Shown here piece after piece: positions 3,362-33,702 of a stretch of DNA of 64,000 nucleotides. This DNA comes from a virus. Lineage: Duplodnaviria; Heunggongvirae; Uroviricota; Caudoviricetes. Under the pieces are notes generated by a model that was given only the letters and a program-made list of their open reading frames with translations, had not been told where the DNA came from and ran no database searches. A program made the position numbers and the translations under genes. The number at the start of each line of letters is the position of its first letter. The first letter of the stretch is position 1. The stretch lies in the IMG/VR virus record IMGVR_UViG_3300025858_001097. One strand, written 5' to 3'.

Positions 3362-3922
3362 TTATTTTAAATTTAATTCTTTTTCTCCAAAAACTTCAGC
3401 TTCATATGTAAATATGTCAGCATCTTTCCAATCATTCCACCCAAGACCCATTTTATCTTGTGAACAATGACCTAAAAATTCCATAAGCGACCAACCAGTT
3501 TCAGTAGCCACTTGTGGTAAAAATGTTCCACTTCTACCATGTTTAGTCATAAAAATTCCATGTTTTCCAATCTCTATATCATTAACATCTGTTATTCTTC
3601 TAAACGGAGTAAGTACTGATATTTCAATATCAATTTCATTCATCTCATCTATTCTAACTGGCGGAAATCTGTCGTCTTGAAACGCAGATTGTATGGCGGT
3701 ATCATGAACTGCTTTATATAATTCATAATCTGAGTTGAATCTTCCTGTACAACCTCTTAACATACCGTTTTTATGTAAAGTTACAAAGGATCCACAATGA
3801 GCTTGTAAAATTTTTGTTTCTGATAGTGGTGAGTATTTTACATGATTTAAAGTTGCATCTATTGTTTCTCTTGCAATTTTTAATAATTCTATTCTGTCTT
3901 TATCGGTAAATCTCATAAACAA
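3362..3922 (-). CDS. AMMECR1 domain protein
   Basis: CGSFVTL...LRGCTG matches the AMMECR1 signature (CGAFVTL / LRGCIG). Confidence 0.75.
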   Translation of the reverse strand: MFMRFTDKDRIELLKIARETIDATLNHVKYSPLSETKILQAHCGSFVTLHKNGMLRGCTGRFNSDYELYKAVHDTAIQSAFQDDRFPPVRIDEMNEIDIEISVLTPFRRITDVNDIEIGKHGIFMTKHGRSGTFLPQVATETGWSLMEFLGHCSQDKMGLGWNDWKDADIFTYEAEVFGEKELNLK

Positions 3923-3932
3923 AATCCCTTTT

Positions 3933-3942
3933 TATATATTAA
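3933..3942 (-). promoter_or_regulatory. promoter-like box upstream of the AMMECR1 gene
   Basis: tatatattaa, 11 nt from the ATG. Confidence 0.4.
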
Positions 3943-4082: not shown

Positions 4083-4095
4083 TTTAATATATAAT
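4083..4095 (+). promoter_or_regulatory. promoter-like box upstream of 4121..4429
   Basis: tttaatatataat. Confidence 0.4.
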
Positions 4096-4120: not shown

Positions 4121-4429
4121 ATGGATTTCATAATATTTCTTTTAGCCACTATAGGATTTACATTAATAATAAACGTTTCTTTTTTGTTTAAGGCAATAAG
4201 AGATTGGACTAAAAATAAAAATAAGTATTTATCTAAATTAGTTACCTGTAGTCAATGTGCTGGTTTTTGGGCATCTTTAATAGTTCAATTTATAATTTTG
4301 ATACATCAAAGAATGGCATTTGCTTTCTATTGGTGTGATTTATATTATATACTTTATGGATTTATAGGTAGTTTTGTTTGTTATTTAACATATCTTTTAA
4401 TCAAACCTTTAATAGATAAATTTGATTAA
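4121..4429 (+). CDS. small membrane protein (about 3 TM helices)
   Basis: Hydrophobic segments; promoter-like box at 4083-4095. Confidence 0.45.
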   Translation: MDFIIFLLATIGFTLIINVSFLFKAIRDWTKNKNKYLSKLVTCSQCAGFWASLIVQFIILIHQRMAFAFYWCDLYYILYGFIGSFVCYLTYLLIKPLIDKFD

Positions 4430-4680: not shown

Positions 4681-4879
4681 ATTAAACCTCCCAATTTTCT
4701 TTTAGATTTGAAAATTAAATATTTATAAAAATCATGCAAAATCATGATATATACTATTACTTTATTATTTATTATATTTTTTCCGGCCGGCATCCATTCG
4801 AACAATGCGCAGTTGGTCTTAAAAAATATCTTATTGTTGCTAATTCTCTCATGATTTTTCTTTTATTTTATATATTAAT

Positions 4880-5601: not shown

Positions 5602-8600
5602 TTATGGTGCCTCTAAATATGTATATAAAGGTATCCAACCTTCATAATAATTTCCAAGAGCATCATCATAAACAGATATTTTAGCCATACGTTCTAATTT
5701 GTATCCAGGACTTCCTATTGTTGGGAAGTTTATAGTAGTGTCTGTTAGACCAGTGAAATTTGTCAAGTTACCAGAATCAACTAAATTCTGATTAGTTATG
5801 AAATTTCCCCTCAAAGTAGTGAAAGCTTTATCAGTATTACCACTTGTTTGTAAATGTATAACTGAAAGATTATTTGAATTTGTTGATTCATAAGCGTTTA
5901 TATTACCTTTTTTATCTATATCTGTTGTTGAATGTCCTCCATAAAAATTGGACATGCCTTCGCTATTTATATCAACTCTAGTATTTCCGCTATTTCTAAT
6001 AGATAAAAGTGTTACTCCACTATCAGTTATATCATTTTTAGTATCTAAGAAATGTATAGTGTTTCCTGTATTGGCTGGATCTAATTGATAAAAAACAGAC
6101 GCTCCGCCACCAGTTATTTTATTATTGACAAATAAATCTCCTCCAGTTACTTCTCTAAAAGATATGTCATCTATTGTAACTATACCAGTACCAGACGTGT
6201 ATGTAGAAGCCATATTTATGGTAAAATCCCCAACGGCTGTAGCTGGTGTTTTTATATAAAAAGTATATGTTTTACTTACGTCTTGGGTGAAAATTAATTC
6301 ATAGGCATATCCTAAAAATGAAGAATTTATAAATCCAGTGATAATCGTTCCAGCACTATGCACAAAACTATAATTCAATCTATACCATCTATTAGGTAAT
6401 ATTGATCTAGCAAAATTAGCTGATGTTTGTGTTATAGAACCTACTCCTGTGGAGTGTGTATATGTGCCTTTATCTCCTGTGAGTGCCATATCTCCAGTGG
6501 CTGACCAACTTGTGCCACTAGTTAAAGCTGAATTTGTAAATGAATCTAATTCCAGTGTATCGAATCTTAATACTTCTTCATTTCCTCTTATCTCTGTTTT
6601 TCTTATATCATAATTACCAACAACAACAGAATTGCTTTCCATTACTTTTGTATCATAACCTATTGCAGTAGAATTAGTTAACGCGGATGTAGAATCTTTT
6701 GAAGCTCCTCGACCCAATAGGGTTAAATAACTATCAGTTGTTAAATTAGTTCTACCAGTTACTGAATAAGAAGGCTGATATACTCCAGCGTTTTGCCCTA
6801 ATACAGTATTATAACCGCCAGTCGATCCGCCAGCAGCAGAATGACCCACTATTGTATTATCATTACCAGTAGTTATGTCAGATCCGGCGTTAGATCCTAT
6901 CGCAACATTAGCCCCACCAGTAGTAGCTAATCGTAACGACGTATATCCGATGGCTACATTATTATATGACGATAAATTATACGCAGCATTATAACCAATG
7001 AGAGTATTATTTGCAGCAGTAGATATAAGTGATCCTGCGTAAACTCCTATAATTACATTAGAAGTGCCGGTTGTTAAATTAAATCCTGATCCTAAACCAA
7101 TGCCAATATTTTCTGATCCAGTTGTTAATTTATTTAAAGCTGAATGACCAACAGCAGTATTAGAATAACCATAAGTTAAAAGTCTTAGAGCTAAAGGACC
7201 TAACGCAACGTTATAATCACCGGTGGTTGATGTGTATAAAGATTCTGTGCCTACAGCGAGATTAAATACTCCAGTCGTGATATTCTTTAAAGAATTTGTT
7301 CCAATAGCTGTGTTAGAATAACCATAAGTTAAATTTTCTAAAGCTGAAGCCCCAAATGCTGTATTGGAAGTACTCCCGGTGGCAGAAAATCTCAAACTAT
7401 TGGTTCCTACTCCCAAATTATTAGGAGTGAAAGCACTTCTAGCTTCCAGACCAATTCCTGTGACAGTTGTGTGTATCAAAGGAGCCCTTATAGCGGCTGT
7501 GGATGGATCAAGTTCTTTTATTGATATATCACTAATAGTTCCACTCGCCCCAGAAGGAACTTCTATTTGAACTGTTACTGACCCTGTAGTATTGGCTGTT
7601 AAATCGGCTGATGTGATTATTATATTTTGTTTTGGATTACTTTTGACGGTTCCAACATATGCGTAAACTTCACTTTTAAAAGTATAAGTAGACGCTCCTC
7701 CAACGGTCCAACTAATTAAATATCTTCTACCTGAAGTAGCGGTTATAGTAGTACTGATAGCACTCAACGCGCCTGCACTGTGTGTATATATACCACCTCC
7801 ACTATTTACCCAATTAGTGCCGAGTGTCCACCCGGTTGGATTTATATTTAATTCGGTTGATAAATTAGGAATATCTGATGATGTATATAGATTAACGCCC
7901 GCTGTATTTAAAACACCATCTAAAGCTATTGGATTTGTGTAACTCGGTTTTAAAGTTGTGGTATTTCCTGTTATATAAAAATAGGCATATAAAGGATCGC
8001 TCCCTTTCTTGTTAGCATAAGGTACAACAGATAAAGTACTGGCCGATATTGTTAAATCGAAAGTTCTATCCATTACGTCAGTAGAGCCTGTCATTATATT
8101 AATCCAACTGGAGTAACCATTAGCGTCGCTCTTTAAAATTTTATCCTCTCCTTCCGATCCGTTAGCATATCTTAAAGTCGAAGACATCAATGTTAATACA
8201 TTTGTATCTGGATCAAAAGTAAATCCACTATCTGTATTATAGCCATATGTAGCCCCTGTATCTCTAAATATAACTTCGAGATTATCTCCTATTAGTGGAA
8301 GAAAACCACTAGTTCCACTACTACCAGATGTACCATAACTTAAACCTGATGTTCCGCTGCTACCAATACCAGAAGTTCCACTAGTTCCAGAAGATCCAGG
8401 CGACCCCGAACCGCTAGTTCCACTTGATCCTGATCCGCTAGTCCCACTCGAGCCTAAAAAATTACCATCTTTTCCACTAGTTCCGCTAGTTCCATAAAAA
8501 TTACCATCAACGCCTGAGCTACCACTTGTTCCAGATTGTCCCTGACCTCCAGCCGGTAGAAAAGATATAATATATTGTTTTCCTTCTACTAAATTTCCAT

Positions 8601-9372
8601 TGGTGTTATATGCTGACAAATTGGATATATTATGCCAATTTCCATTAGCTATAGATGTTATTCCTGTGTATATGCCAAAAAATTCAGGATTCCCCCATTC
8701 CTCTATTTTTAATATACCACCATTCCAACTATTTAACCAGTATCCTAAATCTTGACCGTTACCGTCAACATCGTTTATTGTAAAACCTGTTATCGTTCCT
8801 AAATCTGTTATACTGGCGCTACAACATCCACTATCAGGATATGTTTCACCTGTAAAAGTCCATAATCTTGTTGCTCCACCATATCCACCATCCAATCCAG
8901 ATGTACCAGATGAACCAAAACCAGATGTACCACTTGATCCTGTTAAACCACTAGTGCCTGAAGATCCTGTTTCACCGCTACTTCCACTTGTCCCTGAAGT
9001 GCCGCTCGTACCACTAGTTCCTCTGCCGCTTGTTCCACTTGTGCCGCCAGTGCCACTTGTGCCTCCAGTTCCACTAGTTCCACCTGTTCCGTCTCTACCA
9101 CTACTTCCGTTTGTTCCGTCTCTGCCACTCGTACCGCTGGTTCCATCTGCTCCGCTTGATCCAAAGAAAACTCCATCAACACCCGATGTACCATCTTTAC
9201 CAGATGTGCCGGAAGATCCAGATGCTGAAGTTCCTCCAGTGGTTATATAATGCCACGTGCAATCTTCAAATTTTTCCCATAAACCTACTAAATCTCTACC
9301 GAGGTATATATGACCGGTATCTGGACAACCAATGTCATTAGGATTTATAAGCTGGATTTTTTTGAAACTCAT
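5602..9372 (-). CDS. collagen-like fibre protein 1
   Basis: 1256 aa. It has the conserved N-terminal MSFKKIQLI(N/D)P..IG.P..GHIYLG domain shared with the genes at 15766 and 30764, and two Gly-X-Y (G-T-S / G-S-S) blocks. The C-terminal half carries YadA-head / Hep_Hag-like 14-residue repeats (NTAIG..AL..TTG). Confidence 0.8.
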   Translation of the reverse strand: MSFKKIQLINPNDIGCPDTGHIYLGRDLVGLWEKFEDCTWHYITTGGTSASGSSGTSGKDGTSGVDGVFFGSSGADGTSGTSGRDGTNGSSGRDGTGGTSGTGGTSGTGGTSGTSGRGTSGTSGTSGTSGSSGETGSSGTSGLTGSSGTSGFGSSGTSGLDGGYGGATRLWTFTGETYPDSGCCSASITDLGTITGFTINDVDGNGQDLGYWLNSWNGGILKIEEWGNPEFFGIYTGITSIANGNWHNISNLSAYNTNGNLVEGKQYIISFLPAGGQGQSGTSGSSGVDGNFYGTSGTSGKDGNFLGSSGTSGSGSSGTSGSGSPGSSGTSGTSGIGSSGTSGLSYGTSGSSGTSGFLPLIGDNLEVIFRDTGATYGYNTDSGFTFDPDTNVLTLMSSTLRYANGSEGEDKILKSDANGYSSWINIMTGSTDVMDRTFDLTISASTLSVVPYANKKGSDPLYAYFYITGNTTTLKPSYTNPIALDGVLNTAGVNLYTSSDIPNLSTELNINPTGWTLGTNWVNSGGGIYTHSAGALSAISTTITATSGRRYLISWTVGGASTYTFKSEVYAYVGTVKSNPKQNIIITSADLTANTTGSVTVQIEVPSGASGTISDISIKELDPSTAAIRAPLIHTTVTGIGLEARSAFTPNNLGVGTNSLRFSATGSTSNTAFGASALENLTYGYSNTAIGTNSLKNITTGVFNLAVGTESLYTSTTGDYNVALGPLALRLLTYGYSNTAVGHSALNKLTTGSENIGIGLGSGFNLTTGTSNVIIGVYAGSLISTAANNTLIGYNAAYNLSSYNNVAIGYTSLRLATTGGANVAIGSNAGSDITTGNDNTIVGHSAAGGSTGGYNTVLGQNAGVYQPSYSVTGRTNLTTDSYLTLLGRGASKDSTSALTNSTAIGYDTKVMESNSVVVGNYDIRKTEIRGNEEVLRFDTLELDSFTNSALTSGTSWSATGDMALTGDKGTYTHSTGVGSITQTSANFARSILPNRWYRLNYSFVHSAGTIITGFINSSFLGYAYELIFTQDVSKTYTFYIKTPATAVGDFTINMASTYTSGTGIVTIDDISFREVTGGDLFVNNKITGGGASVFYQLDPANTGNTIHFLDTKNDITDSGVTLLSIRNSGNTRVDINSEGMSNFYGGHSTTDIDKKGNINAYESTNSNNLSVIHLQTSGNTDKAFTTLRGNFITNQNLVDSGNLTNFTGLTDTTINFPTIGSPGYKLERMAKISVYDDALGNYYEGWIPLYTYLEAP
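8322..9237 (-). repeat. Gly-X-Y collagen-like 9-bp coding repeats (two blocks) of fibre protein 1
   Basis: GGN-ACN-AGN periodicity; coordinates approximate. Confidence 0.7.
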
Positions 9373-9390
9373 TTGAAGAATTTTTATTTC

Positions 9391-9400
9391 TATATATTAA
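9391..9400 (-). promoter_or_regulatory. promoter-like box (plus-strand TATATATTAA = gene-strand TTAATATATA) 19 nt upstream of the fibre 1 ATG; a second copy lies at 9465-9480
   Basis: Recurrent motif. Confidence 0.45.
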
Positions 9401-9635
9401 ATTATAAAGACTTATTTATACATCTCCCGAGTACTTAATGTATTTATATGTGTGTAGCATATATTCTATATATTAAATTAAATTACTGATACAATTTCAG
9501 TCGGAATTATATCAGATACAATATCAGAACCAAAAATAATTGCCATTGAATAAGATATTGTGGTTGAATCTAATTGTAATTCATAATATTGTACACCTTC
9601 AAAAATTATATCATCTATCATTTTGAATATTTATT

Positions 9636-11759
9636 TTATTGTGTTAATAGTGCTCTAACAATTATTCCAGCAGGAAGTGTCGTTGCAGTATATCTAATAT
9701 AATTTCCAACATTATCTGCCGATGAACTCCAAGTATTCCAGTTAGTTCCATCTGTAGAATATTGCCAAGTACCACTACCAGATGCTACAACAGTATCATC
9801 TAAAATTAATCCATTAGTTGCCGCATTATACATTCTTATTCTTAAATTTGGTATATTTGATCCCCAAGCTGTTGATTGACGATAAGCAAATATTCTATTT
9901 GTAACACTAGATTTATTTACACTTGGCGTATAATGAGAATCTGTATTAGAATCTTCATAAACAACTGACATTGAGTATATTCTAGATGGAATGCACCAAG
10001 TTCCTAGAACCTTAAATTTTATTTTAAATTGTATTGAATCTGTTCCCCCAACACTTGTCAAATCGCCATCATTACCCAACAATGTCCATGTTCCACCACT
10101 TGATTCAAATCCTGTTGTTCTATAATAAACATCAAAATCTTCTGTAGGACAACCAAAAGTTAAGTCTCCTAATTGTCTGGTCGAGTTTACATATAATCTA
10201 TAAAATTTGACACAACCAGTCGTATTTAATATGGGTGTAGTTACAAACGAACCGAAATCATCGGCCCATCCTCTATGAGGTTTCACGGGTATCGCATATA
10301 TTTGATTCAATGCTGCGGAAGTACCATTACGACTAATATATAAATATCCAGATTCTGTATAAAGAGATACCATAGTTCCGTTTGTCGTTGGGTGTATTGG
10401 AGCACTGTTGTCAGCTGTAGATTGATCTGTTTGAAGATCATTTGCGAGGAATACGCGTTCGAACGGATCTGATGTTGTTTGATATGTTGTACAATATGAA
10501 CGACCAGCAGCCGCTCCAGATAAGAAAAGCTTATCAGTCAAATCCCCCCACTCAACTCCTGTAAAAGTTGATACAGTATATGTTGCGGTGCCTCCAGGTG
10601 GAACTTCAACCATAGAATCTGTAATAAAATTAGTTGAACCATTTGTTATTGTGCTTAAATCACTTCTATAAACCCTGGATGTTGTCACAAAATATAAAGA
10701 TTTTACACCTGATGCTACACCATGCTTTAATGTTGCTATTCTGCCATTGTTTGTAACAATAATAGTTCCAGTTAAAGCTGATGCGATCGTTCCTGTTTTA
10801 AATTGAAAAGCTGTTGTATCTTTACCTGTCGTGGGTGATAGTGACGCTCTAATATTATAAACATAATATTGATAACCGTTTGCAGAAACCGTACCGTTCA
10901 TTGCATAACAAAGATGTGTAGTATATCCACTTTTAGTATCTAATGCGCATCCCCAAGCTGTTGTCATTGTTACTGAAGCAGCATCTGCTAGCCAATACAA
11001 TGCTCGAAGATTGTCCGTATTTGCGGTGAGCGTGAATGTTAAACCTCCAGATTGAAATGTGTCTCTATTTAATCCTTTCACAAGGAATAATCCACTGTTT
11101 GTTGATGTTGCACTTGTGATTGTCATGACTACTCTTAATTCTTCCATAACATACGGGGTTCCACTTGGATAAACACCCGCACCAGTTGATAATGTTAAAC
11201 CGGTATCACTATTAATTGGTGTAGTTGTTGGATTTGACATTTCATACCAAGTTGTTATTTGTGCTGGATCAGTGCTTCCAAAACCTATACGAGCCCCAGC
11301 TGCCATTCGATCTGTAACCCATTGTGTTCCAGTTCCTTTCACAGTTGTTCCATCAACTTCAACAGTACCAGTTGTATAAGCAACATAATCCATACGAAAA
11401 CCTTTTACTGTTAAGTTACCACCAGGTCCAGTCAATGTTATAAACCCTTTATAATTAAATAAATTTTGAAATTTGTCATATTCATACATGACAACAACTC
11501 TTGTTGCTGCTGCTAATGCGATGCCTGCTAAAAATACCCAATCTATTGTATCACTCCAATGTATAACAAAGGGATATCCAACTGCGTTAGCTGTTGGAGC
11601 TTCCATTGGTCTTGCAATAGCAAGAGGAACAGTGCTCACATACCAATCGGCGGGCGTTGTGCCCGTGTTTTGTATAATTTGTGGTCCTATATAAGTCGTT
11701 GTTCCTGTATAGGTTGTTGATGTTGTACCATTAAAAATATGTTCTATTACGTTTTTCAT
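9636..11759 (-). CDS. Thr/Ser-rich beta-rich protein, putative fibre or receptor-binding component
   Basis: 707 aa. Its start codon overlaps the stop of fibre protein 2 (TAATG), suggesting translational coupling. No collagen repeat. Confidence 0.6.
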   Translation of the reverse strand: MKNVIEHIFNGTTSTTYTGTTTYIGPQIIQNTGTTPADWYVSTVPLAIARPMEAPTANAVGYPFVIHWSDTIDWVFLAGIALAAATRVVVMYEYDKFQNLFNYKGFITLTGPGGNLTVKGFRMDYVAYTTGTVEVDGTTVKGTGTQWVTDRMAAGARIGFGSTDPAQITTWYEMSNPTTTPINSDTGLTLSTGAGVYPSGTPYVMEELRVVMTITSATSTNSGLFLVKGLNRDTFQSGGLTFTLTANTDNLRALYWLADAASVTMTTAWGCALDTKSGYTTHLCYAMNGTVSANGYQYYVYNIRASLSPTTGKDTTAFQFKTGTIASALTGTIIVTNNGRIATLKHGVASGVKSLYFVTTSRVYRSDLSTITNGSTNFITDSMVEVPPGGTATYTVSTFTGVEWGDLTDKLFLSGAAAGRSYCTTYQTTSDPFERVFLANDLQTDQSTADNSAPIHPTTNGTMVSLYTESGYLYISRNGTSAALNQIYAIPVKPHRGWADDFGSFVTTPILNTTGCVKFYRLYVNSTRQLGDLTFGCPTEDFDVYYRTTGFESSGGTWTLLGNDGDLTSVGGTDSIQFKIKFKVLGTWCIPSRIYSMSVVYEDSNTDSHYTPSVNKSSVTNRIFAYRQSTAWGSNIPNLRIRMYNAATNGLILDDTVVASGSGTWQYSTDGTNWNTWSSSADNVGNYIRYTATTLPAGIIVRALLTQ

Positions 11760-14700
11760 TATATTTTTTTAATTTTTAGAAAATAATATAATTTTGTTAT
11801 ATCAGTCGCAGAATTGACATAAAATTCTATCAAATCTCCGGATGTAATGTTTGTTGACCAACTCGCGAGAGAATAATCACTATTTTTTATTTGATTCGTT
11901 AATGTTGGATAATTTCCTGCCGTTATTCCTGTAAATATCGGATAATCAGAGTAATTACTTTTTCTAATATCAACTGCGCAACTCCCAGAAATACTTGCAA
12001 ACATTGTCCAACTATACATGACACAATCATAATTCATTTGTTTAAACCCCTTTGAACCAGTTGTTATAACATTTGATCCATTATCGATTATGAAACCTAT
12101 TGTATCATATTCTGTTGAACTAACGCCTGAACTACCAGAGTTTCCACTGGAACCACTGGTGCCAGAACTACCCGGAGATCCAGTTCCTGATGTTCCACTG
12201 GTGCCAGAACTACCCGGAGATCCAGTTCCTGATGTTCCACTGGTTCCGCCAGTTCCACTAGTTCCACCACTACCTGTTAAACCACTAGTTCCTGATGTTC
12301 CACTAGTCCCGCCTACACCACTCGTGCCACTAGTACCACTGATACCTGAAGTACCTGAAGTTCCACTACTACCTTGCGCTCCACTAGTGCCGCTAGTTCC
12401 TCCTGTACCACTGGTACCACTGATACCTGAAGTACCTGAAGTTCCACTACTACCTTGCGCTCCACTAGCGCCGCTAGTTCCTCCTGTACCACTGGTCCCT
12501 GAAGTGCCTGACGTTCCCGATGTGCCTGAAGTGCCGCTTGTTCCTGATGAACCATCTCTTCCACTACTTCCACTGGTTCCTGATGTCGGTGAATTGGTTT
12601 GATAATATGTATTACCAGAACTATCTACAACTAGATATCTAGATAAACCTGAAGTTGATGTTATTCCAGATATAACTAAAGTATTTGTTACCAATTTACC
12701 ATTACCATCAACAGACATAACATTACCATCTATGCCGTTTTGAATTTCAAGTACTGTATCCGAATCTGAGTTTGAACCTCTCTTGATAGTAAGAGCCCCC
12801 AATGTTGAATTCGTCAATATTTCTGGAACACCTGTTGAATTATTATAAGCTATTTGAAGATTGACTGTTGATAATCCAATACCGCCCATACCAATCACAT
12901 CACCAAATTTTGAAACCAATAAAAATTTAGCAGTGGATGGATCTGTTAAATTTGTACAATTACTCTGAACTGTTAAAATACCTATTAATATAGCATCTGT
13001 TTGAAAATTAGAAAATGTAACAAATGATTCAGTTAACGCATTGGATAAAGCCGTTGCAAAATCAGAATATACTGTTTGACCATATTGAATTCTAAATTTT
13101 CCATTTTGAGTCAAAAATATTCTCTGATTAGTTGATTGTTTTGCTGGCGATCCTACCAAAGTAACAACACCACCGTCATCCCAATAATTGGGTATCACTT
13201 GTGTCCTATCTGTATCCGAACCGCCTAATTGTGTTCTATATTGGAAAGTTGTAGGACTTTGTGATGATATACTAATACTACTTGGATTCAATACACTATT
13301 CGAAAAACCAATACCCAAACCCCACAATTTACCACCAGTAGTATTAAATGTCAAACCAGTATTTGGTGATGGATATATTCCCTGATTAATCAAATTAATA
13401 GGTGTCCATACATCTCTAAGTTGAGATAATGGTGAAACATCTAAATCAGGTTGATCCAACGAATAAAGCAAATATGATTTAGTTGGATGGGCTAATTTGC
13501 CCAAAAATATAGATTGTCTTCTATTTGTAGGTGATAATTCTGTTGAACTTTGAGCTATAGTTCCATCAGATTGTAAATAAACCCAAGTTTCCGTTGATGT
13601 TGATATATTTGTTGCTGTTATTCCAGTCTGACCTAAAAAATGAACATATAGAGCTGTTGGATTTATTGGATCAGTTGTATTATCAATAATCCAACCTTTA
13701 ACTTCACTTACATTAAATGTAATACCAGTTGTAGTGGGTGGATTAGAATTCAATGTTAATCCTGAAAAATAAAATAATCCAGTTGAATTAACATTACCCA
13801 ATAATATGTTTCTTTCAATATCGGTTAAACTAATTTCAGTATCTTCGTTCTTAACGTTAATATATATTTTTCCCGTTGTTGGTGAATTATCAATGACTTT
13901 ACCTATATAATTACTTCTTGATGAATATTGTAAACTTGATGATCCAACTATGAATCCGCCTGCTACTGTATCAGATAAATATAAATTATCACCATTTGTA
14001 TATCCCGATAAATTAAGATCATATATTTTTCCGTTTGTAATAACAAACCCTACACCACTTAAAGATATATCTTCTGATACCATTCCTAAAACAACATCAT
14101 CTAGATTACTTGCAATAGCCTTATCAACACAAGGTATTCCATTAATAGTCGAACCTCCAGTTAATTTAACGACAGTGGATTTCGTTAATACGTAAGAATT
14201 TGGATTATAGACTTTGATTACTAATTGTCCACCAAGAAGAATTGTTGATTGTAATGTATCAGATTGAGGATAATAAACTATACCTCCTTTATTATTATCA
14301 TAAACCATCCTGCCAGTAAGACCAGTAGACGGTAAAGTAATTCCTGTCCAAAAATCAAAATATCCAACATCAGATACATTGCCATCATGTAAAGATAATG
14401 TAGTTTCTGTGAATGTCAAACCCGATTGGGATATAGCACCATCTGGCGTTCCATCCGAAGTCAGCACTCTTGTTAAAGTTGGATATTGTACTGTTGTGAA
14501 ACCGTGACCTGAACTACCCGATGTGCCTGAAGAACCTGAAGTACCTGTCGTTCCGCTTGTTCCAGAAGTTCCTGATGTGCCTGAAGTGCCACTAGTTCCA
14601 GAAGAACCTGATGTTCCGCTGGTTCCACTAGAACCTGACGTTCCACTTGTTCCTGAAGTGCCACTAGTTCCAGAAGTGCCTGATGAACCATCTTGTCCAG

Positions 14701-15766
14701 AAGTTCCGCTAGTCCCGATAGTTCCTGAAGTACCTGAAGAACTTGAAGTTCCACTAGTTCCAGAAGTACCACCAGTTCCACTAGTTCCACTACTACCTTG
14801 TTTTCCAGAAGTACCACTTGTTCCACTAGTTCCATCGGTACCACTTGTTCCACTACTACCAAGAAAACTTCCATCTTTTCCACTAGTTCCACTACTACCA
14901 AGAAAACTTCCATCTTTCCCAGATGAACCACTAGTGCCGTCAGCACCAACTCCTCCTGTTCCGAAAGGAACATATGATATTAAATAACTTTCATTATTTG
15001 TTAGACTACCATTCGAGCTAATATCTGTAACTCCACTAATTTGATAAACATATAAATATGGAGTCGTGTTTATAGTAATACCACTTATTATATTATATAA
15101 TCCAAATATTGAGGGGTTATTGTGCAATTCTATTTTTAACATGCCGCTTGTCCAAGTATCCAGCCAATTGCTTTGATCAACATTATCTGCATCAACTTGA
15201 CTTATTCTAAAATATTCTGTAGCACTAAAGTGATCATTTCCGCTGTAGAAATATTTTGAAATTGGTATTGGTTGTGTCGAATCATATACCCATCTTCTAG
15301 ATGCTCCACCATATCCTGAGAATCCACTAGTTCCGCTACTACCAAAAAAATCTCCATCTACTCCCGAAGATCCACTTGTTCCAGTAAAACCACTAGACCC
15401 ACTAGACCCACTAGTACCTTTTCCGCTAGTTCCACTGGTTCCAGTTGTACCACTGGATCCTGTTTTTCCGCTAGTTCCACTAGTTCCTTCTTTTCCACTT
15501 GTTCCGCTCGATCCATCCTTTCCGCTACTTCCCGAGAAACCACTGGTTCCACTTGATCCGAAAAAACTTCCATTCAATCCATCCTTACCAGAAGATCCAC
15601 TTGTTCCAGCCGTTCCACTTAAAGTAATACCAGATGCTATATAAGTTATAGTTCCATCGGATTCTTTTTGCCATAAACCATAGTCATCGTGACCTAGATA
15701 AATAAAACCAACCTCGGGATTACCAATAACTGTTGGATCAATTAATTGTAATTTCTTAAAACTCAC
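11759..15766 (-). CDS. collagen-like fibre protein 2
   Basis: 1335 aa. The N-terminal domain MSFKKLQLIDPTVIGNPEVGFIYLG is conserved and there are three Gly-X-Y blocks. The track start appears to be GTG, whereas its paralogues use ATG. Large beta-rich central domain. Confidence 0.8.
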   Translation of the reverse strand: MSFKKLQLIDPTVIGNPEVGFIYLGHDDYGLWQKESDGTITYIASGITLSGTAGTSGSSGKDGLNGSFFGSSGTSGFSGSSGKDGSSGTSGKEGTSGTSGKTGSSGTTGTSGTSGKGTSGSSGSSGFTGTSGSSGVDGDFFGSSGTSGFSGYGGASRRWVYDSTQPIPISKYFYSGNDHFSATEYFRISQVDADNVDQSNWLDTWTSGMLKIELHNNPSIFGLYNIISGITINTTPYLYVYQISGVTDISSNGSLTNNESYLISYVPFGTGGVGADGTSGSSGKDGSFLGSSGTSGKDGSFLGSSGTSGTDGTSGTSGTSGKQGSSGTSGTGGTSGTSGTSSSSGTSGTIGTSGTSGQDGSSGTSGTSGTSGTSGTSGSSGTSGTSGSSGTSGTSGTSGTSGTSGTTGTSGSSGTSGSSGHGFTTVQYPTLTRVLTSDGTPDGAISQSGLTFTETTLSLHDGNVSDVGYFDFWTGITLPSTGLTGRMVYDNNKGGIVYYPQSDTLQSTILLGGQLVIKVYNPNSYVLTKSTVVKLTGGSTINGIPCVDKAIASNLDDVVLGMVSEDISLSGVGFVITNGKIYDLNLSGYTNGDNLYLSDTVAGGFIVGSSSLQYSSRSNYIGKVIDNSPTTGKIYINVKNEDTEISLTDIERNILLGNVNSTGLFYFSGLTLNSNPPTTTGITFNVSEVKGWIIDNTTDPINPTALYVHFLGQTGITATNISTSTETWVYLQSDGTIAQSSTELSPTNRRQSIFLGKLAHPTKSYLLYSLDQPDLDVSPLSQLRDVWTPINLINQGIYPSPNTGLTFNTTGGKLWGLGIGFSNSVLNPSSISISSQSPTTFQYRTQLGGSDTDRTQVIPNYWDDGGVVTLVGSPAKQSTNQRIFLTQNGKFRIQYGQTVYSDFATALSNALTESFVTFSNFQTDAILIGILTVQSNCTNLTDPSTAKFLLVSKFGDVIGMGGIGLSTVNLQIAYNNSTGVPEILTNSTLGALTIKRGSNSDSDTVLEIQNGIDGNVMSVDGNGKLVTNTLVISGITSTSGLSRYLVVDSSGNTYYQTNSPTSGTSGSSGRDGSSGTSGTSGTSGTSGTSGTSGTGGTSGASGAQGSSGTSGTSGISGTSGTGGTSGTSGAQGSSGTSGTSGISGTSGTSGVGGTSGTSGTSGLTGSGGTSGTGGTSGTSGTGSPGSSGTSGTSGTGSPGSSGTSGSSGNSGSSGVSSTEYDTIGFIIDNGSNVITTGSKGFKQMNYDCVMYSWTMFASISGSCAVDIRKSNYSDYPIFTGITAGNYPTLTNQIKNSDYSLASWSTNITSGDLIEFYVNSATDITKLYYFLKIKKI
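12046..12616 (-). repeat. Gly-X-Y coding repeat block (C-terminal) of fibre protein 2
   Basis: 9-bp periodicity; approximate bounds; further blocks at about 14566-14956 and 15331-15622. Confidence 0.65.
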
Positions 15767-15785: not shown

Positions 15786-15800
15786 TCTATATATTAAAAA
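15786..15800 (-). promoter_or_regulatory. promoter-like box upstream of the fibre 2 start
   Basis: tctatatattaaaaa. Confidence 0.45.
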
Positions 15801-16575: not shown

Positions 16576-17415
16576 TTATGTTCCTGTCAAAGTAACGACT
16601 AATTGATTGACAGTCCCTGACGCAGAAGCTATATACAAGGCTAACCAATCCCCAGCAGAAACGCTAGATCCAGTTTTTCCGCTTGCTCCACCCGTTGTTG
16701 CTACTATATCCGATCCAAACAAACTCGATGTAGATCCAATAGCTCCATAATATATATTAAAAGTGGCACTCGTATTATTTTGAACATAAGCGTTAGCTAC
16801 AGTCGGAGCATAAGACGCATTTAATCTGGGGCCTAATATAACTCCAGGTCCCGGCGAAGACACTACCCAAGTAAAACTTCTTTCGGGGTATGTGCCAGAT
16901 GTGCCTGATGAACCAGGACTACCAACGCCAGATGTTCCTGATGAACCAGGACTACCAACGCCAGATGTGCCACTTGTTCCGCTTGTTCCAGTAGTTATAT
17001 TAGTTACTTCTTTCACAACATTTCCATCCAATACCAATTTTGTACCGTTATCAGCTACAGTATCAACATTTGTCATAGTGAGAGTCGAACCAGTCATCCA
17101 TATATTAGGAATATAAGATGTATTTGTCGCTGAATCCCAATAAAAATCTGGATCTGTAGCAAATGAATTATCTATAGTCTGCCATGTTCCAACTCCATTA
17201 GCATCTGAAGTTAAAACATATCCATTGGATTGTGATCCGTCCACTATTCTAATAGTGCCGCCAGAAACAACAATTTTTTGGTCTATCGACCAAGCAGCAG
17301 ATGTTACACCAACACCAATTCTTTTATTGGTTTTGTCAATCATAACAACATCCTCTAACATTAAAGATGTGTTACCAGTTTGAGTATATTCTGTATAAAA
17401 TTTGGTTTGTGACAT
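16576..17415 (-). CDS. small collagen-motif protein (279 aa)
   Basis: Central GTSGTSGTSGVGSPGSSGTSGVGSPGSSGTSG flanked by beta-rich domains; contains a 33-nt tandem duplication. Confidence 0.6.
   Translation of the reverse strand: MSQTKFYTEYTQTGNTSLMLEDVVMIDKTNKRIGVGVTSAAWSIDQKIVVSGGTIRIVDGSQSNGYVLTSDANGVGTWQTIDNSFATDPDFYWDSATNTSYIPNIWMTGSTLTMTNVDTVADNGTKLVLDGNVVKEVTNITTGTSGTSGTSGVGSPGSSGTSGVGSPGSSGTSGTYPERSFTWVVSSPGPGVILGPRLNASYAPTVANAYVQNNTSATFNIYYGAIGSTSSLFGSDIVATTGGASGKTGSSVSAGDWLALYIASASGTVNQLVVTLTGT
16895..16971. repeat. 33-nt tandem direct repeat (2 full units plus a partial third)
   Basis: ccagatgtNcctgatgaaccaggactaccaacg appears twice and is then restarted; it encodes VGSPGSSGTSG twice. 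Confidence 0.7.
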
Positions 17416-17453
17416 TTAAAAATTTCTATTTTTACTATATATAATTTTTTTTG

Positions 17454-18638
17454 TTATGGAAAACATACAGCAACCGGTGTGCTTTTATTTGTAACTGAAT
17501 TTATTCCTAATTCTCCAAAAGTATTTTCCCCCCAAGACCAAGCTTTATTATTTTTATCTAAAGCCAAAGTATTATAACCACCGCTTATGAAATTGAAAGT
17601 ATGATTTCCACAGACAGCGACCGGAGTTGATACACTTCCAGACGACGTGTTCGCGCCTAACTGTCCGTCGTTATTCCATCCCCAACACCACGCTTTTCCG
17701 TGATTATCTATCGCCATAGAATGATAATTACCAGCTTCTATATCGCAAAATGTATGACCTCCACAAACAGCCACCGGCGTACTTCTATTAGTTGATGTAT
17801 TATCTCCCAAAGTACCAACATTGAAATTTGACCCCCATGCCCAAGCTTTTCCATGATTGTCTATCGCTAATACGTGATGTTGTCCACAAGATATTTGACA
17901 AAATGTATGCGCTCCGCAAACAGCCACTGGTGTACTTCTATCTGTGGAAATATTATTACCTAAACATCCATACCCATTGTATCCCCATCCCCAAGCTTTG
18001 CCATGATTGTCTACGGATGACGAATGACGTTGTCCGCAATCTATTAGACAGAATGTATGAGTCCCGTAGACTGCAATTGGTGTGCTTTTACATACCACAG
18101 TGTTATCTCCCAATTGTCCATAATTATTATCCCCCCATGACCACAATTTACCATTATATCCTAATCCTAAAGTGTTATGACCTTCACTAGTATATCTTCC
18201 TCCTACTTTTATATAACAAAAAGTATGATCCCCGCAAACAGCCACTGGTATAGATTTTCCATTGGTAGTATTATCTCCCAATTGTCCATAACTATTATTC
18301 CCCCAAGTCCAAGCTTTCCCGTCGGTATCTATGGCTGCGCTGTGTATCCCAGTGTCTATGGCAATAAAATTGCGATTACCAAAAACGGCTCGTGGAATAC
18401 ATTTATCACCGTGTTCATTAATGCCTAATTGTCCATAACTATTATCTCCCCAAGTCCAAGCTTTGTTATAAACATCTAAAGCTATGCTATTAAAAGTTCT
18501 ACCAACAATACTTACAAAATAATCAGTTGATCCAGAATCTGTTAAATAAATTAAACAAGGAGACGATATTTCATACGCTATTTTACTATTTCGTAAAACT
18601 ATTCTATAAATGGCCATAAAAAACAGATTTTTTATCAT
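17454..18638 (-). CDS. RCC1-repeat beta-propeller protein
   Basis: At least six WxWGxNxYGQLG repeats. Confidence 0.7.
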   Translation of the reverse strand: MIKNLFFMAIYRIVLRNSKIAYEISSPCLIYLTDSGSTDYFVSIVGRTFNSIALDVYNKAWTWGDNSYGQLGINEHGDKCIPRAVFGNRNFIAIDTGIHSAAIDTDGKAWTWGNNSYGQLGDNTTNGKSIPVAVCGDHTFCYIKVGGRYTSEGHNTLGLGYNGKLWSWGDNNYGQLGDNTVVCKSTPIAVYGTHTFCLIDCGQRHSSSVDNHGKAWGWGYNGYGCLGNNISTDRSTPVAVCGAHTFCQISCGQHHVLAIDNHGKAWAWGSNFNVGTLGDNTSTNRSTPVAVCGGHTFCDIEAGNYHSMAIDNHGKAWCWGWNNDGQLGANTSSGSVSTPVAVCGNHTFNFISGGYNTLALDKNNKAWSWGENTFGELGINSVTNKSTPVAVCFP

Positions 18639-18662
18639 TTTTATATATAAAAAATCTGTTTT
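18620..18662 (-). terminator. A-tract/T-tract flanked hairpin between the epimerase and RCC1 genes; the loop carries TATATAT and the RCC1 start codon
   Basis: aaaaaacagatttttt / aaaaaatctgtttt form a perfect stem of about 14 bp with a 15-nt loop atcatttttatatat. It fills the whole intergenic spacer. Confidence 0.45.
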
Positions 18663-21669: not shown

Positions 21670-22008
21670 TTATGATGTTAATAAAACAGGCAAAATTGTA
21701 ACCGTGCCGATAGCTGGTGTTGTTGGTTGACCAACAGTGTCAACAAGTCTTAACTCATGATAATAACTACCAGCTGTAATTCCAGTTGTATCAGCAGGTT
21801 CTAATGTCACTGTAACATTCTTACCAGACAATGTTATACCAAAGCCACCAGACGTTTTTAAAATAGCCTGTGATCCAGTAGCTTCTTCTGTAGTGGACAT
21901 AGCCCATTCGGCTGTTCCGCCAGTAACAGTAGATACATCCTCGATATAAAACACAATTTGTCTGTAGTTACCTTTCCATGTTGTAAAATCTTGATTTGTT
22001 TTTCCCAT
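21670..22008 (-). CDS. hypothetical protein (112 aa)
   Basis: ORF track; promoter-like box at 22031-22040. Confidence 0.45.
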   Translation of the reverse strand: MGKTNQDFTTWKGNYRQIVFYIEDVSTVTGGTAEWAMSTTEEATGSQAILKTSGGFGITLSGKNVTVTLEPADTTGITAGSYYHELRLVDTVGQPTTPAIGTVTILPVLLTS

Positions 22009-22067
22009 TTTATTTTTTATTTTTTATTTTTATATATTAAAAAATATATTTTTTTAATTCTATTCTA

Positions 22068-25000
22068 TTATATTTCAGTGTTGTTAGCAGAAACATAGGA
22101 GTATTCAATGACATCAACAGTATATTTCAATTGAAGTTTATAACTTGGCGATGGATCCCATCCAGTAGCACTCCTTAAATTATTTTTTAATAATAGATAC
22201 GGTTTACTGCTATATATTAGAGCTTCCGCATCTATATCATTAGGACCTATTTGTCCTTGTGTATCTATCGATGCGTGACGACCCGGAGATGGTGTTTCTG
22301 AATTATACTTAACCCAATACCCCGAATGTTGAACTGTTTTAGTATCTGTTACATAATTAGTATAGCTACCAGTTTGATCTACAAAGACGTTGAAACGATA
22401 TTCTCTCATCGCTGCCAATGAATAATCGATTGCTGTCATTTGTGAAGTAGTGCCAGTATCCATTAAGTGATCCATATAGTAGTAACAATTAACCTTAACA
22501 GAGAATCCACTAGTTCCATTTCCACCTGTAACTCCGTGTGTTGTGGATAAGTCTATTTTACTTTGTGAAGCCCAAGCTGTGGCCCAACTAAACGGAGGTA
22601 TATCATTTACATAATAATACGTTACTCCAATTCCAGAGGTTCCACTACTGCCTGTTATTCCTGATGTTCCACTAGTTCCTGAAGTGCCACTAACGCCACT
22701 AGTTCCACTGGTGCCATCATTTCCAGATGTTCCGCTTGTTCCTCTAGCTCCAGATGTTCCGCTAGTTCCACTACTGCCTTGTTTTCCAGATGTTCCACTA
22801 GTTCCACTAGTGCCACCTGTTCCACTGGTTCCTGATGTACCTCCAGTTCCACTAGTTCCACTACTACCTGTTATTCCAGCGGTTCCGCTAGTTCCTGATG
22901 TACCGCCAGTGCCGCTAGTTCCACTACTGCCTTGTTTTCCAGATGTTCCACTAGTTCCACTTGTACCGCCTGTGCCTGAAGTACCACCAGTGCCATCATG
23001 TCCAGATGTTCCGCTTGTTCCACTACTACCATCATTTCCAGATGTTCCACTTGTACCGCCAGTACCATTTGTTCCTGATGTACCTCCAGTTCCACTAGTT
23101 CCACTACTACCTTGTCTTCCAGAAGTACCACTGGTTCCACTTGTACCGCCTGTACCATTTGTTCCTGATGTACCTCCAGTTCCACTGGTTCCGCTACTAC
23201 CATCATTTCCAGATGTGCCTGAAGTACCACCTGTTCCGCTAGTTCCAGAAGTACCACTACTACCATCATTACCAGATGTTCCACTGGTTCCGCTACTACC
23301 ATCATTTCCAGATGTTCCGCTAGTTCCACTACTACCATCATGTCCGGATGTTCCACTAGTTCCACTAGTTCCACCTGTGCCATTTGTTCCTGATGTACCA
23401 CCAGTTCCACTAGTTCCACTACTGCCTTGTTTTCCAGAAGTACCACTTGTGCCACTAGTTCCACCCGTACCATTTGTTCCTGATGTACCACCAGTTCCAC
23501 TGGTTCCACTACTTCCATCATGTCCTGATGTGCCTGAAGTTCCTCCAGTACCACTAGTTCCACTACTGCCATCATGTCCAGATGTTCCTGAAGTTCCACC
23601 CGTGCCTGAAGTACCGCTTGTACCACCAGTGCCATCATGTCCAGAAGTACCACTAGTTCCACTACTGCCATCGTGACCAGACGTACCTGAAGTACCACTT
23701 GTTCCACTAGTTCCTGATGTACCACTTGTTCCTGATGTACCACTACTGCCATCGTGACCAGACGTACCTGAAGTACCACTTGTTCCGCTTGTACCACTAC
23801 TTCCATCATGTCCTGATGTACCTGAAGTTCCTCCAGTACCTGAAGTTCCACTACTTCCATCATGACCAGATGTGCCTGCTGTTCCTGAAGTACCACCAGT
23901 ACCATTGGTTCCTGAAGTTCCGCCCGTTCCTGATGTACCACTACTACCATCATTTCCAGATGTTCCACTAGTTCCACCAGTTCCGTTTGTTCCTGAAGTT
24001 CCACCAGTTCCACTAGTTCCACTACTCCCTGAAGTACCGTTTGTTCCAGAAGTGCCTGAAGTGCCTCCAGTTCCACTTGTACCACTACTACCTTGTTTTC
24101 CAGAAGTACCACTTGTACCACTACTACCAGAAGCACCTGAAGTGCCTGAAGTTCCTCCAGTTCCACTAGTTCCACCTGTTCCATTTGTTCCTGATGTCCC
24201 ACCAGTTCCACTAGTCCCACTACTTCCTGTTAAACCTGAAGTTCCGCCAGTTCCTGAAGTTCCTCCTGTTCCCGAGGTACCACTACTACCTTGTTTTCCA
24301 GAAGTTCCGCTAGTTCCTGAAGTTCCTCCTGTTCCGCTGGTACCTGAAGTTCCACCAGTGCCACTAGTTCCACTACTACCATCGTGTCCAGATGTTCCAC
24401 TTGTTCCACTAGTTCCACTACTTCCTGAAGTTCCTCCAGTTCCACTAGTTCCACTGCTTCCAGAAGTTCCACTAGTCCCAGAAGTACCACTAGTACCTCC
24501 AGTACCACTAGTTCCACTACTACCTTGTTTTCCAGAAGTTCCGCTGGTTCCTGAAGTACCGCTTGTGCCGCCTGTTCCGCTAGTACCTGAAGTACCACCT
24601 GTACCACTAGTTCCACTACTGCCATCGTGTCCCGAAGTACCACTAGTACCTCCAGTTCCGCTAGTTCCACTACTACCATCATGTCCAGATGTTCCACTAG
24701 TTCCACTGCTACCTGAAGTTCCTGAAGTACCATTTGTTCCACTTGTACCTGAAGTTCCACTTGTACCACTACTACCTTGTTTTCCAGAAGTACCATTTGT
24801 ACCACTTGTACCACTACTACCTGAAGTTCCACCAGTTCCAGAAGTACCGCCAGTTCCATTTGTTCCTGAAGTGCCTCCAGTTCCGCTAGTTCCACTAGTT
24901 CCACTAGTTCCATCATGACCCGATGTTCCCGAAGTTCCACCTGTACCAGATGTTCCTGATGTCCCGCCTGTTCCGCTTGTTCCACTACTTCCATCATGAC

Positions 25001-30764: not shown

Positions 30765-30771
30765 TTAAAAA

Positions 30772-30813
30772 GAAAAACGGTTTTTTATACCTATATATAA
30801 AAAACCGTTTTTC
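30772..30813 (-). terminator. perfect 15-bp inverted repeat (A5-CGG-T6) with a TATATA-containing loop, between the pncA-like gene and the fibre 3 start
   Basis: gaaaaacggtttttt [atacctatatat] aaaaaaccgtttttc; T-runs on both strands; ends 9 nt before the fibre 3 ATG. Confidence 0.5.
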
Positions 30814-30841
30814 TTTTTGGTGTGGAGTTGTTATGAAGTTA

Positions 30842-31432: not shown

Positions 31433-31433
31433 A

Positions 31434-31799
31434 TTATTCTAATCTAATAACACCACTATCAACTTCAAATGTTTTCTTTTCTACCAGAGTGTCTGGCAAA
31501 ACAAAAGTTTTTCCATCCTGTAAAACCATAACAGTTCCTTTCTTTGGAAAATGAACAGGATTTTTGCATGTTTCGCTATGGAATAAAAAGGAATTAAATG
31601 CTGGTTTTAATGAAAGACGTCCATTGGTTTTCAAATAACCCATGTATTCGTGCCCTTCAATTTCATAAACATATAAGGTGATCCCATTCACGACAACATG
31701 TCTTTTAGCATTCATTTCTTTATCAATATCAACTTTCTGTTTACAACCAGTAAACAGAAAAAGACACATTATTACTAATAATCCTAAAAATTTTTTCAT
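31434..31799 (-). CDS. lipoprotein (121 aa)
   Basis: Signal peptide with lipobox LFTGC. Confidence 0.5.
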   Translation of the reverse strand: MKKFLGLLVIMCLFLFTGCKQKVDIDKEMNAKRHVVVNGITLYVYEIEGHEYMGYLKTNGRLSLKPAFNSFLFHSETCKNPVHFPKKGTVMVLQDGKTFVLPDTLVEKKTFEVDSGVIRLE

Positions 31800-31819
31800 T
31801 TTACAAATATATTAATTTT

Positions 31820-33636: not shown

Positions 33637-33702
33637 AAGAACTTTTTATTCTTATATATTAAAAACTAAAAATCACTTTTAACCTTTTCATTGTGGTCAT
33701 TT

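Follow-up and report, generated by a model that had tools for sequence, protein, structure and literature searches.

In a 64,000-nucleotide (nt) stretch of DNA from a tailed virus (Caudoviricetes; IMG/VR record IMGVR_UViG_3300025858_001097), referred to below as the window, the same AT-rich box, with the core TT(A/T)ATATATA, recurs a short distance upstream of start codons on both strands, and the question that it raises is what this box does and which factor reads it. The original prediction took the box for a virus-specific middle or late promoter, a proposal that gains support from the conservation of the box, its direction with respect to the genes, its placement before virion genes and the presence of a gp55-type sigma factor in relatives. 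The box can be placed more precisely than “virus-specific”: it is built like the late promoter of phage T4. Judged from the sequences compared here, the box very probably functions as a promoter, and it is likely to be the T4-type late promoter of a Mahaphage-type phage of Bacteroidota, used via a gp55-like sigma factor.

The window has a G+C content of approximately 34%, is 93% coding with the minus strand predominant, and contains no tRNA genes that could be found. A megablast search of a phage collection with 21 kb of the window returned no nucleotide match, and protein-level searches were required to identify relatives. In tblastn searches, LR756501/LR756503 (735,411 bp) came closest, with LR756502, LR745206, and LR756504 (634-642 kb) next. 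No genomes in the “Mahaphage” clade are larger than these, and Bacteroidetes are their predicted hosts (PMC7162821). The region of LR756501 at approximately 383-457 kb is syntenic with the window, with protein identities of 46-92% in an ORF-by-ORF (open reading frame) comparison. LR756501 was analysed complete; LR756502, LR745206, and LR756504, as well as phages Lak-A1 (200001-250000), PAU (60001-110000), and Tenacibaculum phage pT24, were analysed as samples of 50 kb each. The genomes of the relatives carry no annotation, and gene calls are greedy longest-ATG ORFs.

The box is far more abundant than the composition of the DNA would produce. The exact 12-mer TTAATATATARA occurs 12 times in the window against an expectation of 0.10, and 17 of the 19 copies of the 10-base core TTAATATATA fall within the 6.9% of the window that is non-coding, as do 20 of the 23 sites that match TT[AT]ATATATA. 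When the non-coding segments alone (4,146 nt) were shuffled with preservation of dinucleotides (n = 500), they yielded 0.43 ± 0.67 cores with a maximum of 3, compared with the 15 cores that lie wholly inside these segments, which corresponds to an enrichment of approximately 35-fold. These shuffles exclude the AT-richness artefact that had been named as a refuter and, together with the retention of the box at orthologous sites, rule out an origin in base composition; the repeated box is real. In an unbiased expectation-maximization analysis of 73 upstream regions, TTTTTTAATATATA ranked top among 250 seeds; the seed ranking alone was used, as the model drifted to general T-rich sequence when it was allowed to converge (lambda 0.55). 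Two exact cores lie within coding sequence, one in a fibre gene (13857-13866, plus strand, in 11759-15766) and one in ORF 16576-17415 (16751-16760, minus strand), and are either chance copies or internal promoters.

The box end lies 3-27 nt from the start codon (10-mer, window), and the box heads 19 of 64 genes (30%), including most heads of transcription units, rather than “most genes” as first stated. Genes with no box either follow a box-headed gene in a tight array or have another motif upstream. All 20 coordinates listed originally hold the box or a variant of it: 16 are exact 10-mers, three are one base off (17436-17445, 43024-43033, and 57467-57476), and one (44013-44022) is two bases off the consensus, yet conserved in LR756501. 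The strand did not hold in one case, because the box at 45473-45482 reads as the consensus on the plus strand and had been listed as minus. Three minus-strand sites were absent from that list (4869-4878, 18642-18651, and 30792-30801). The overlap of boxes with upstream stop codons is seen at two sites, and the first fibre gene does carry two copies (Table 1).

Conservation in the relatives gives a phylogenetic footprint of the box, which is retained at at least ten orthologous genes in LR756501 while the flanking intergenic sequence diverges. The box or the same variant precedes the LR756501 orthologues of 3362, 4121, 41532/39971, 41792, 43036, 46778, 52426, 59252, and 60807, and the box in the gap at 45457-45584 is likewise kept. 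Across the whole of LR756501 there are 135 exact cores, of which 126 are in the non-coding 7% and 102 lie no more than 40 nt upstream of an ATG on the same strand. Allowing one mismatch gives 292 non-coding sites, the chief forms being TTAATATATA (126) and TTTATATATA (69). The box is also strongly oriented: in the forward direction, an ORF starts within 35 nt of 145 of the 195 non-coding TT[AT]ATATATA sites, compared with 28 in the reverse orientation. In LR756502, LR745206, and LR756504, the words AATATATA, TAATATAT, and ATATATAG are among the most enriched upstream 8-mers, and most of their copies are non-coding.

The anatomy of the LR756501 sites is simple. Within the core, the ATATATA portion is near-invariant; a weak T-run stands just upstream of the box, and the five bases after it are A/T-rich and are followed by AAA. 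No -35 element was detected at the 292 sites, with at most 0.16 bit at every position from -45 to -3. The box thus differs, as had been noted, from both the sigma-70 and the Bacteroidota -7 consensus, being devoid of TTTG and of any -35 signal. Promoters of the Escherichia coli sigma-70 type (TTGACA, 16-18 nt, TATAAT) are not enriched either, with 108 matches against 107 expected in 19 kb.

The distances between box and ATG in LR756501 fall into two groups: 24 genes form a sharp spike at exactly 5 nt (pattern TTWATATATA-G-nnnn-ATG), and the others a broad hump at 13-30 nt that peaks at 20-23 nt (mode 21-22 nt). At the sites of the latter, leadered class, the fraction of A is 0.86, 0.85, and 0.77 at 6, 7, and 8 bases past the box end, respectively. 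The host-type element offers a calibration of these distances. The G of the Bacteroidota -7 box TAnnTTTG is located at -5 (PMC9723704; PMC6847099), and among non-coding TAHHTTTG sites in LR756501, ATG codons form a small spike at exactly 4 nt past the G and are almost missing at 5-14 nt, which reads as the signature of leaderless genes. By this calibration, the 5-nt spike would put the final A of the phage box at -6, which is also where the late box of T4 ends, being 8 bp long with its first base at -13 (PMC2988020). From the 5-nt spike and the preference for A six bases past the box, we infer that transcription would start at this conserved A, which would be the initiating nucleotide in both spacing classes.

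Most box genes would accordingly produce mRNAs with A-rich leaders of approximately 9-21 nt that contain no Shine-Dalgarno sequence, and the mRNAs of a separate subset would have no leader, their ATG standing at +1. The 5-nt spike is what leaderless mRNAs would be expected to leave, and the original proposal of very short or leaderless 5′ untranslated regions fits well with it. The predicted leaderless late mRNAs amount to approximately 12% of LR756501 boxes, as compared with only about 5% of host mRNAs in Bacteroidota (PMC9723704). In the window, the 5-nt class has one clean member (57467-57476, ATG at 57482) and two near members (18642 and 60754); read in the register 18644-18653, the box of the gene for a protein with RCC1 repeats is 5 nt from its ATG. 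The reported absence of Shine-Dalgarno sequences is borne out, as Shine-Dalgarno-like 4-mers at -20 to -4 occur at control level (6/67 genes in the window versus 5/67 in a control stretch; 96/1003 versus 83/1003 in LR756501). Five predicted starts have Shine-Dalgarno-like 5-mers in the same interval; AGGAG (before 2877), GGGAGG (before 4680), and AAGGAAG (before 46778) are convincing, whereas the one at 15573 falls inside ORF 11759-15766. The region upstream of start codons is A-rich at -18 to -10. Bacteroidota mRNAs likewise have A-rich leaders without Shine-Dalgarno sequences (PMC6847099).

The genes behind the box include several of the kind expected of a late class. In the window they comprise both tail-fibre genes, the gene for a head-tail-adaptor-like protein, and several small ORFs, and in LR756501 the box or a one-base variant is found upstream of the portal gene, the major capsid gene, and two terminase-fragment homologues. 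No box is present before the LR756501 genes for the polymerase (gp43), the clamp loader (gp44), gp46, uvsW, and the sigma candidate described below. The late timing of box genes, suggested by this distribution, would agree with the original proposal. That box-negative genes might form a second class is also supported, since several of them carry a conserved TAnnTTTG. This motif is kept in both the window and LR756501 before 51350 (phosphoribosyl pyrophosphate (PRPP) synthase), 54225, 45585 (M28 peptidase), 44038, and 31434, and is found in the window before 37538 and 62511 as well. The case for this class rests on orthologous conservation, because the enrichment in the non-coding DNA of the window is by itself modest (12 versus 7.5 ± 2.7). 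The bases of the Bacteroidota -7 element are T-12, A-11, T-8, T-7, T-6, and G-5 (PMC6847099), and the TAnnTTTG class is probably of the host-sigma type and early. The copy before 62511 adjoins an Rfam DUF805b cis-regulatory RNA motif (63566-63601, minus strand; 41.8 bits, which exceeds the gathering score), a bacterial-type riboswitch-like leader in a phage genome, and the leader region is similar in LR756501.

A candidate for the factor that reads the box was identified in LR756501. A hidden Markov model (HMM) of T4-like gp55 picked out a 124-amino-acid (aa) ORF (69450-69824; E = 0.001), the gene of which adjoins head-completion, portal, and capsid genes. The best PHROG match of this protein is the “late sigma transcription factor” family (E = 0.19), and a hhalign comparison of its family, which comprises 93 clusters in metagenomes, with the gp55 family covers gp55 residues 5-103 (probability 91%, E = 9e-7). 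The top Protein Data Bank (PDB) match of the family profile is the gp55 chain 7d7c_F, and the same chain is the best Foldseek match of an AlphaFold model (pLDDT 83; TM 0.72/0.65, root mean square deviation 1.8 A, 100 columns), followed by the region-2 domains of sigma-32, sigma-E, and sigma-S. As single scores are weak, the identification rests on the agreement of these tests. A Pfam match to ExsA_N proved to be spurious. Homologues are present in LR745206, LR756502, LR756504, LR756500, all Lak phages, Tenacibaculum phage pT24, and PAU; those of the cultured phages are annotated as hypothetical (NC_049383.1 148402-148761, pT24 gp171; NC_019521.1 89849-90316, PAU gp112). It can be inferred from this distribution that the phage represented by the window has the same sigma factor.

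These observations fit a mechanism in which the box stands alone in the -10 region as an AT-rich element without a -35 counterpart. The core of the host RNA polymerase would read it after exchanging its own sigma factor for a small one from the phage that, like T4 gp55, possesses only a sigma-2 domain. By analogy with T4, the 124-aa protein would be that factor. The two opposed boxes at 60754-60763 and 60781-60790 are 17 nt apart in a gap of 59 nt and leave no room for another promoter, and in the 5-nt class there is none for a separate -7 or -10 element. In T4, late promoters (TATAAATA) are served by gp55, gp33, and the gp45 clamp, and the last eight bases of the present box, AATATATA, match the T4 sequence at 6 of 8 positions. 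As in T4, a single TATA-like box stands about one helical turn upstream of the start, with its end placed at -6 by the calibration above, without a -35 element and with AT-rich DNA downstream; boxes are found on both strands before virion genes; and the sigma-2-only gp55-like protein of the relatives is accompanied by replication and morphogenesis genes of the T4 type (in LR756501, homologues of gp43, gp44, gp46, uvsW, gp4, gp17, gp18, gp20, and gp23). Unlike T4, the core is longer (10 bases, TTWATATATA) and of different sequence, the core enzyme is that of Bacteroidota, Shine-Dalgarno sequences are missing, and there is a class with ATG at the predicted +1, leaderless transcripts being no described feature of T4 late genes. 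In addition, the Prevotella megaphage and Tenacibaculum phage PTm1 are counted among the T4-like jumbo phages that have no RNA polymerase of their own and carry minimal sigma factors and gp33 (Iyer et al., 2021; PMC7824862).

The comparison can be extended to other phages of the same sigma family, in which 8-base TATA-like words are enriched upstream of genes. In the Lak-A1 sample, 10 of 17 copies of AATAAATA (longer form AATAAATA(T)) are upstream of ORFs, and in PAU 9 of 12 copies of TATACATA precede an ORF start by at most 50 nt, copies before the tail-sheath gene among them. The words of Lak, PAU, the present phages (AATATATA), and T4 differ mainly at the fifth position, a variation that would be expected if sigma factor and promoter co-evolve. 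As far as literature searches show, the putative Lak and PAU boxes are observations of this study and not published promoters. No clear box was seen in the 50 kb of pT24 examined. In PAU, every one of the 12 copies of the form tTATACATAt lies within a block of plus-strand genes and on its coding strand. Lak-A1 also shows a host-type word, TATCTTTG, and treating TAG as a sense codon raises its ORF density from 70% to 89%.

Several points weigh against the identification of the box as a T4-type late promoter. The sigma candidate is 124 aa in length against 185 aa for gp55, its locus is seen in relatives and is outside the window, and each of its matches taken singly is weak (E = 0.001 for the HMM, 0.19 for PHROG, and 0.06 for Foldseek). 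Neither of the two T4 co-factors was recovered from LR756501: the best HMM hit for gp33 (E = 0.14) is noise and a phmmer search for the gp45 sliding clamp gave no match, both with narrow queries based on T-even phages, and inspection by eye of the ORFs beside the clamp-loader and sigma genes recognised no clamp or gp33, so that a clamp-dependent activation as in T4 is putative. An M28 peptidase gene and a unit containing NadR, which are not obviously virion genes, are located behind boxes. The peak of leadered spacings is rather narrow, which a pure promoter model does not require, and one box is situated inside a strong terminator-looking hairpin (30770-30815). Finally, the case for a promoter, late timing included, is built entirely from sequence comparison.

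The alternative that survives best, although we regard it as unlikely, is that the box is a promoter read by another factor, namely an undetected phage RNA polymerase (a split enzyme like that of phiKZ/AR9, a crAss-like, or a T7-like one), another phage sigma factor, or the host sigma-A redirected by an activator. The 124-aa protein is linked to the box by analogy alone, approximately 90% of megaphage genes have no known function, and the screen for polymerases was crude: a phmmer search of the LR756501 ORFs with one sigma-70 fragment found no sigma-70-like protein, which is a weak negative, and a regular-expression search of the large ORFs among the greedy calls, of low sensitivity, found no DFDGD/DxDGD motif of the RNA polymerase beta-prime subunit. 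The promoters of phiKZ/AR9 multisubunit polymerases are likewise short AT-rich consensus sequences without a -35 element in jumbo phages. Such phages encode their own split beta/beta-prime polymerases and employ no sigma factor (PMC7824862); by contrast, no DFDGD-type motif occurs in any ORF of the complete LR756501 and this low-sensitivity screen found no beta/beta-prime genes, and the Bacteroidota megaphages are grouped with the T4-like jumbo phages that are without an RNA polymerase (PMC7824862). As for an activator acting with host sigma, the box resembles promoters of the Bacteroidota primary sigma factor (-33 TTTG / -7 TAnnTTTG) in its single dominant start-proximal element, the polymerase core, and the short A-rich leaders without Shine-Dalgarno sequences (PMC9723704; PMC6847099). 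However, the box is devoid of the invariant TTTG that Bacteroidota sigma-A needs, true TAnnTTTG sites sit before other genes, and genes of the 5-nt class lack the space for a separate -7 element; an activator working with host sigma does not fit these features.

It is much less probable that the box acts in RNA, as a signal for translation initiation or mRNA processing that replaces the Shine-Dalgarno sequence, perhaps via phage-modified ribosomes. The fairly constant distance to start codons (mode 20-23 nt), the lack of Shine-Dalgarno sequences, and the ribosomal proteins and initiation factors reported in huge phages (PMC7162821) would be compatible with such a role. On the other hand, only about 30% of genes are boxed, and these come first after a gap and not within tight arrays; the replication genes have no box, though they are also translated; divergent gaps of approximately 60 nt consist of two opposed boxes and no other possible promoter; the 5-nt class would put the element against the start codon; and the homologous element of T4 is a DNA promoter.

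A true TATA box, read by a TBP/TFB-like factor together with an unrecognised phage polymerase and with a start approximately 25 nt downstream, is more improbable still; in that case, the main class, whose ATG follows the box by 20-23 nt, would have leaderless mRNAs. The TATATA core is shared with the archaeal and eukaryotic TATA box, the modal distance of about 26 nt from box centre to ATG resembles the archaeal TATA-to-start distance, and TFIIB-like proteins are listed in a figure legend of the huge-phage survey (PMC7162821). The gp55-like sigma factor and the bacterial polymerase of the host argue against it, and a start approximately 25 nt downstream fits neither the 5-nt class nor the run of A at 6-8 nt past the box. 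The notion that the box is a functionless by-product of intergenic DNA that is approximately 72% A+T, or of terminator hairpins, one box being located in a 24-bp hairpin followed by a T-run, can be dismissed for practical purposes given the enrichment over shuffles, the orientation bias, the retention at orthologous sites across genomes at approximately 60% protein identity, and the finding that the spacer between the two fibre boxes (9401-9466) folds no better than shuffled sequence (z = 0.02) and contains no structured RNA matching Rfam.

The sites of both putative promoter classes in the window are compiled in Table 1.

Table 1. Positions of the TT(A/T)ATATATA box and of the probable host-type -7 box in the window; distances run from the end of the box.
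Feature	Sequence	Position	Strand	Gene context
Box	TTAATATATA	3933-3942	-	16 nt to ATG of ORF 3362-3916; conserved before LR756501 orthologue
Box		4084-4093	+	27 nt to ATG of ORF 4121-4429; divergent partner of 3933-3942; conserved in LR756501
Box		4869-4878	-	16 nt to 26-codon mini-ORF
Box, proximal copy		9391-9400	-	18 nt to ATG of tail-fibre/spike gene 5602-9372
Box, distal copy		9467-9476	-	6 nt to 14-codon mini-ORF; 94 nt to fibre ATG
Box		15788-15797	-	21 nt to GTG start of collagen-like tail-fibre gene 11759-15766
Variant box	ATTATATATA	17436-17445	-	Precedes ORF 16576-17415
Variant box	TTTATATATA	18642-18651	-	3 nt to ATG of RCC1-repeat gene 17454-18638; candidate leaderless start
Box		22031-22040	-	22 nt to ATG of ORF 21670-22008
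Variant box	TTTATATATA	30792-30801	-	27 nt to ATG of 2898-aa ORF 22068-30764; inside hairpin 30770-30815
Box		33653-33662	-	16 nt to ATG of ORF 32797-33636, then NadR 31820-32800
Box		41786-41795	-	Overlaps stop of 41792-42997; 23 nt to ORF 41532-41762, then M28 peptidase 39971-41467; conserved in LR756501
Variant box	TTTATATATA	43024-43033	-	Before ORF 41792-42997; identical variant in LR756501
Weak variant	AAAATATATA	44013-44022	-	Before ORF 43036-43992; identical variant in LR756501
Consensus box		45473-45482	+	Divergent gap 45457-45584; 102 nt to ORF 45585 (putative target); conserved in LR756501
Box		46750-46759	+	18 nt to ATG of ORF 46778-47239; conserved in LR756501
Box		52395-52404	+	21 nt to ATG of ORF 52426-53574 (CarboxypepD_reg domain); conserved in LR756501
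Box		57398-57407	-	22 nt to ATG of ORF 57136-57375
Variant box	ATAATATATA	57467-57476	+	Last A begins ATG 57476; in-frame ATG 57482 exactly 5 nt on; predicted leaderless
Box		60033-60042	-	Overlaps stop of 60039-60482; 19 nt to ATG of head-tail-adaptor-like gene 59252-60013; conserved in LR756501
Box		60754-60763	-	6 nt to ATG of ORF 60499-60747; back to back with 60781-60790, 17 nt apart
Box		60781-60790	+	16 nt to ATG of ORF 60807-61406; divergent pair conserved in LR756501
Box		62415-62424	-	18 nt to ATG of small ORF 62253-62396, then 61385-62275
Host-type -7 box	TATATTTG	31804-31811	-	4 nt to ATG of ORF 31434-31799; predicted leaderless; same 4-nt spacing in LR756501
Host-type -7 box	TAATTTTG	38107-38114	-	50 nt to ORF 37538-38056
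Host-type -7 box	TAATTTTG	45512-45519	-	55 nt to ORF 44038-45456
Host-type -7 box	TAATTTTG	45552-45559	+	25 nt to ORF 45585-46733; TAnnTTTG conserved in LR756501; consensus from PMC6847099
Host-type -7 box	TAATTTTG	52342-52349	-	50 nt to PRPP synthase gene 51350-52291
Host-type -7 box	TAAATTTG	54992-54999	-	17 nt to metallophosphoesterase-like ORF 54225-54974
Host-type -7 box	TACATTTG	63608-63615	-	Directly upstream of DUF805b RNA motif and ORF 62511-63545

Some of the sites in Table 1 call for comment. Two boxes have nothing but minus-strand mini-ORFs at a promoter-like distance, one of 26 codons (MRELATIRYFLRPTAHCSNGCRPEKI, 4852) and one of 14 codons (MLHTYKYIKYSGDV, 9461), and these boxes could represent tandem promoters or could serve small peptides or short RNAs. 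The hairpin at 30770-30815 has a perfect AT-rich stem of 24 bp (dG -29.7 kcal/mol, z = -9) with T-runs on both strands, and separates ORF 30842-31432 from the 2898-aa ORF. LR756501 contains a hairpin of the same design, composed of other stem bases, before its ORF at 420486-422930; the site at 30792-30801 may be a terminator, a promoter, or both. The 2898-aa ORF itself (22068-30764, minus strand) has a G+C content of 0.44-0.50 compared with 0.28-0.35 in its flanks, harbors many long shadow ORFs in other frames, and shows only local similarity to giant LR756501 ORFs (2719 and 3487 aa). The box variant at 57467-57476 is followed, 5 nt on, by the start of a small ORF, and this ORF precedes a 550-aa HNH/homing-endonuclease-like gene (57616-59268, plus strand; PHROG E = 1e-127), which has no counterpart at the syntenic place in LR756501 and is likely to be a mobile insertion.

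Other genes of the window include those for the two tail fibres, both collagen-like, M28 and M42 peptidases, a TonB-dependent receptor, and the proteins already mentioned. A cluster for the salvage and uptake of nicotinamide adenine dinucleotide (NAD) at 30842-37541 encodes isochorismatase/nicotinamidase-like and NadR-like proteins, a PnuC-like nicotinamide mononucleotide transporter, a PBP-family protein, and a full TonB-dependent receptor including the plug domain (35457-37541), with the PRPP synthase gene further on (51350-52291). A peptide motif, (L)DP[YF]GEE(D/N/E)W(D/N/E), occurs 106 times among approximately 1000 LR756501 ORFs and three times in the window, on the minus strand near 63696, at 33735 (C-terminus of ORF 33703-34128), and at 60398 (ORF 60039-60482). 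It often sits at the very C-terminal end or, in small proteins that begin with MIKKF, 10-25 residues from the N-terminus, in up to four copies per protein, and is carried by several of the box genes predicted to be leaderless. No literature on this motif was found; it could act as a signal for cleavage, targeting, or docking.

To date, no description of the box, of Mahaphage promoters, or of the sister boxes in Lak and PAU was found in the literature. The mechanism is a familiar one, the strategy of T4, and the setting is new; no new principle is involved. None of the largest known phages (630-735 kb) has been cultured, and they are approximately 90% unannotated; the pattern TTWATATATA-N5-A, combined with the TAnnTTTG class, makes it possible to sort about 1000 genes into putative early and late sets from sequence. 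The late-promoter consensus also fixes start codons and flags mini-ORFs. Paired with the 124-aa sigma factor, the box could be used to switch expression orthogonally in Bacteroidota. More generally, the strategy of T4, in which a minimal sigma factor is paired with a bare TATA-like box, would appear to extend to Bacteroidota hosts, in which promoters and translation signals are unusual.

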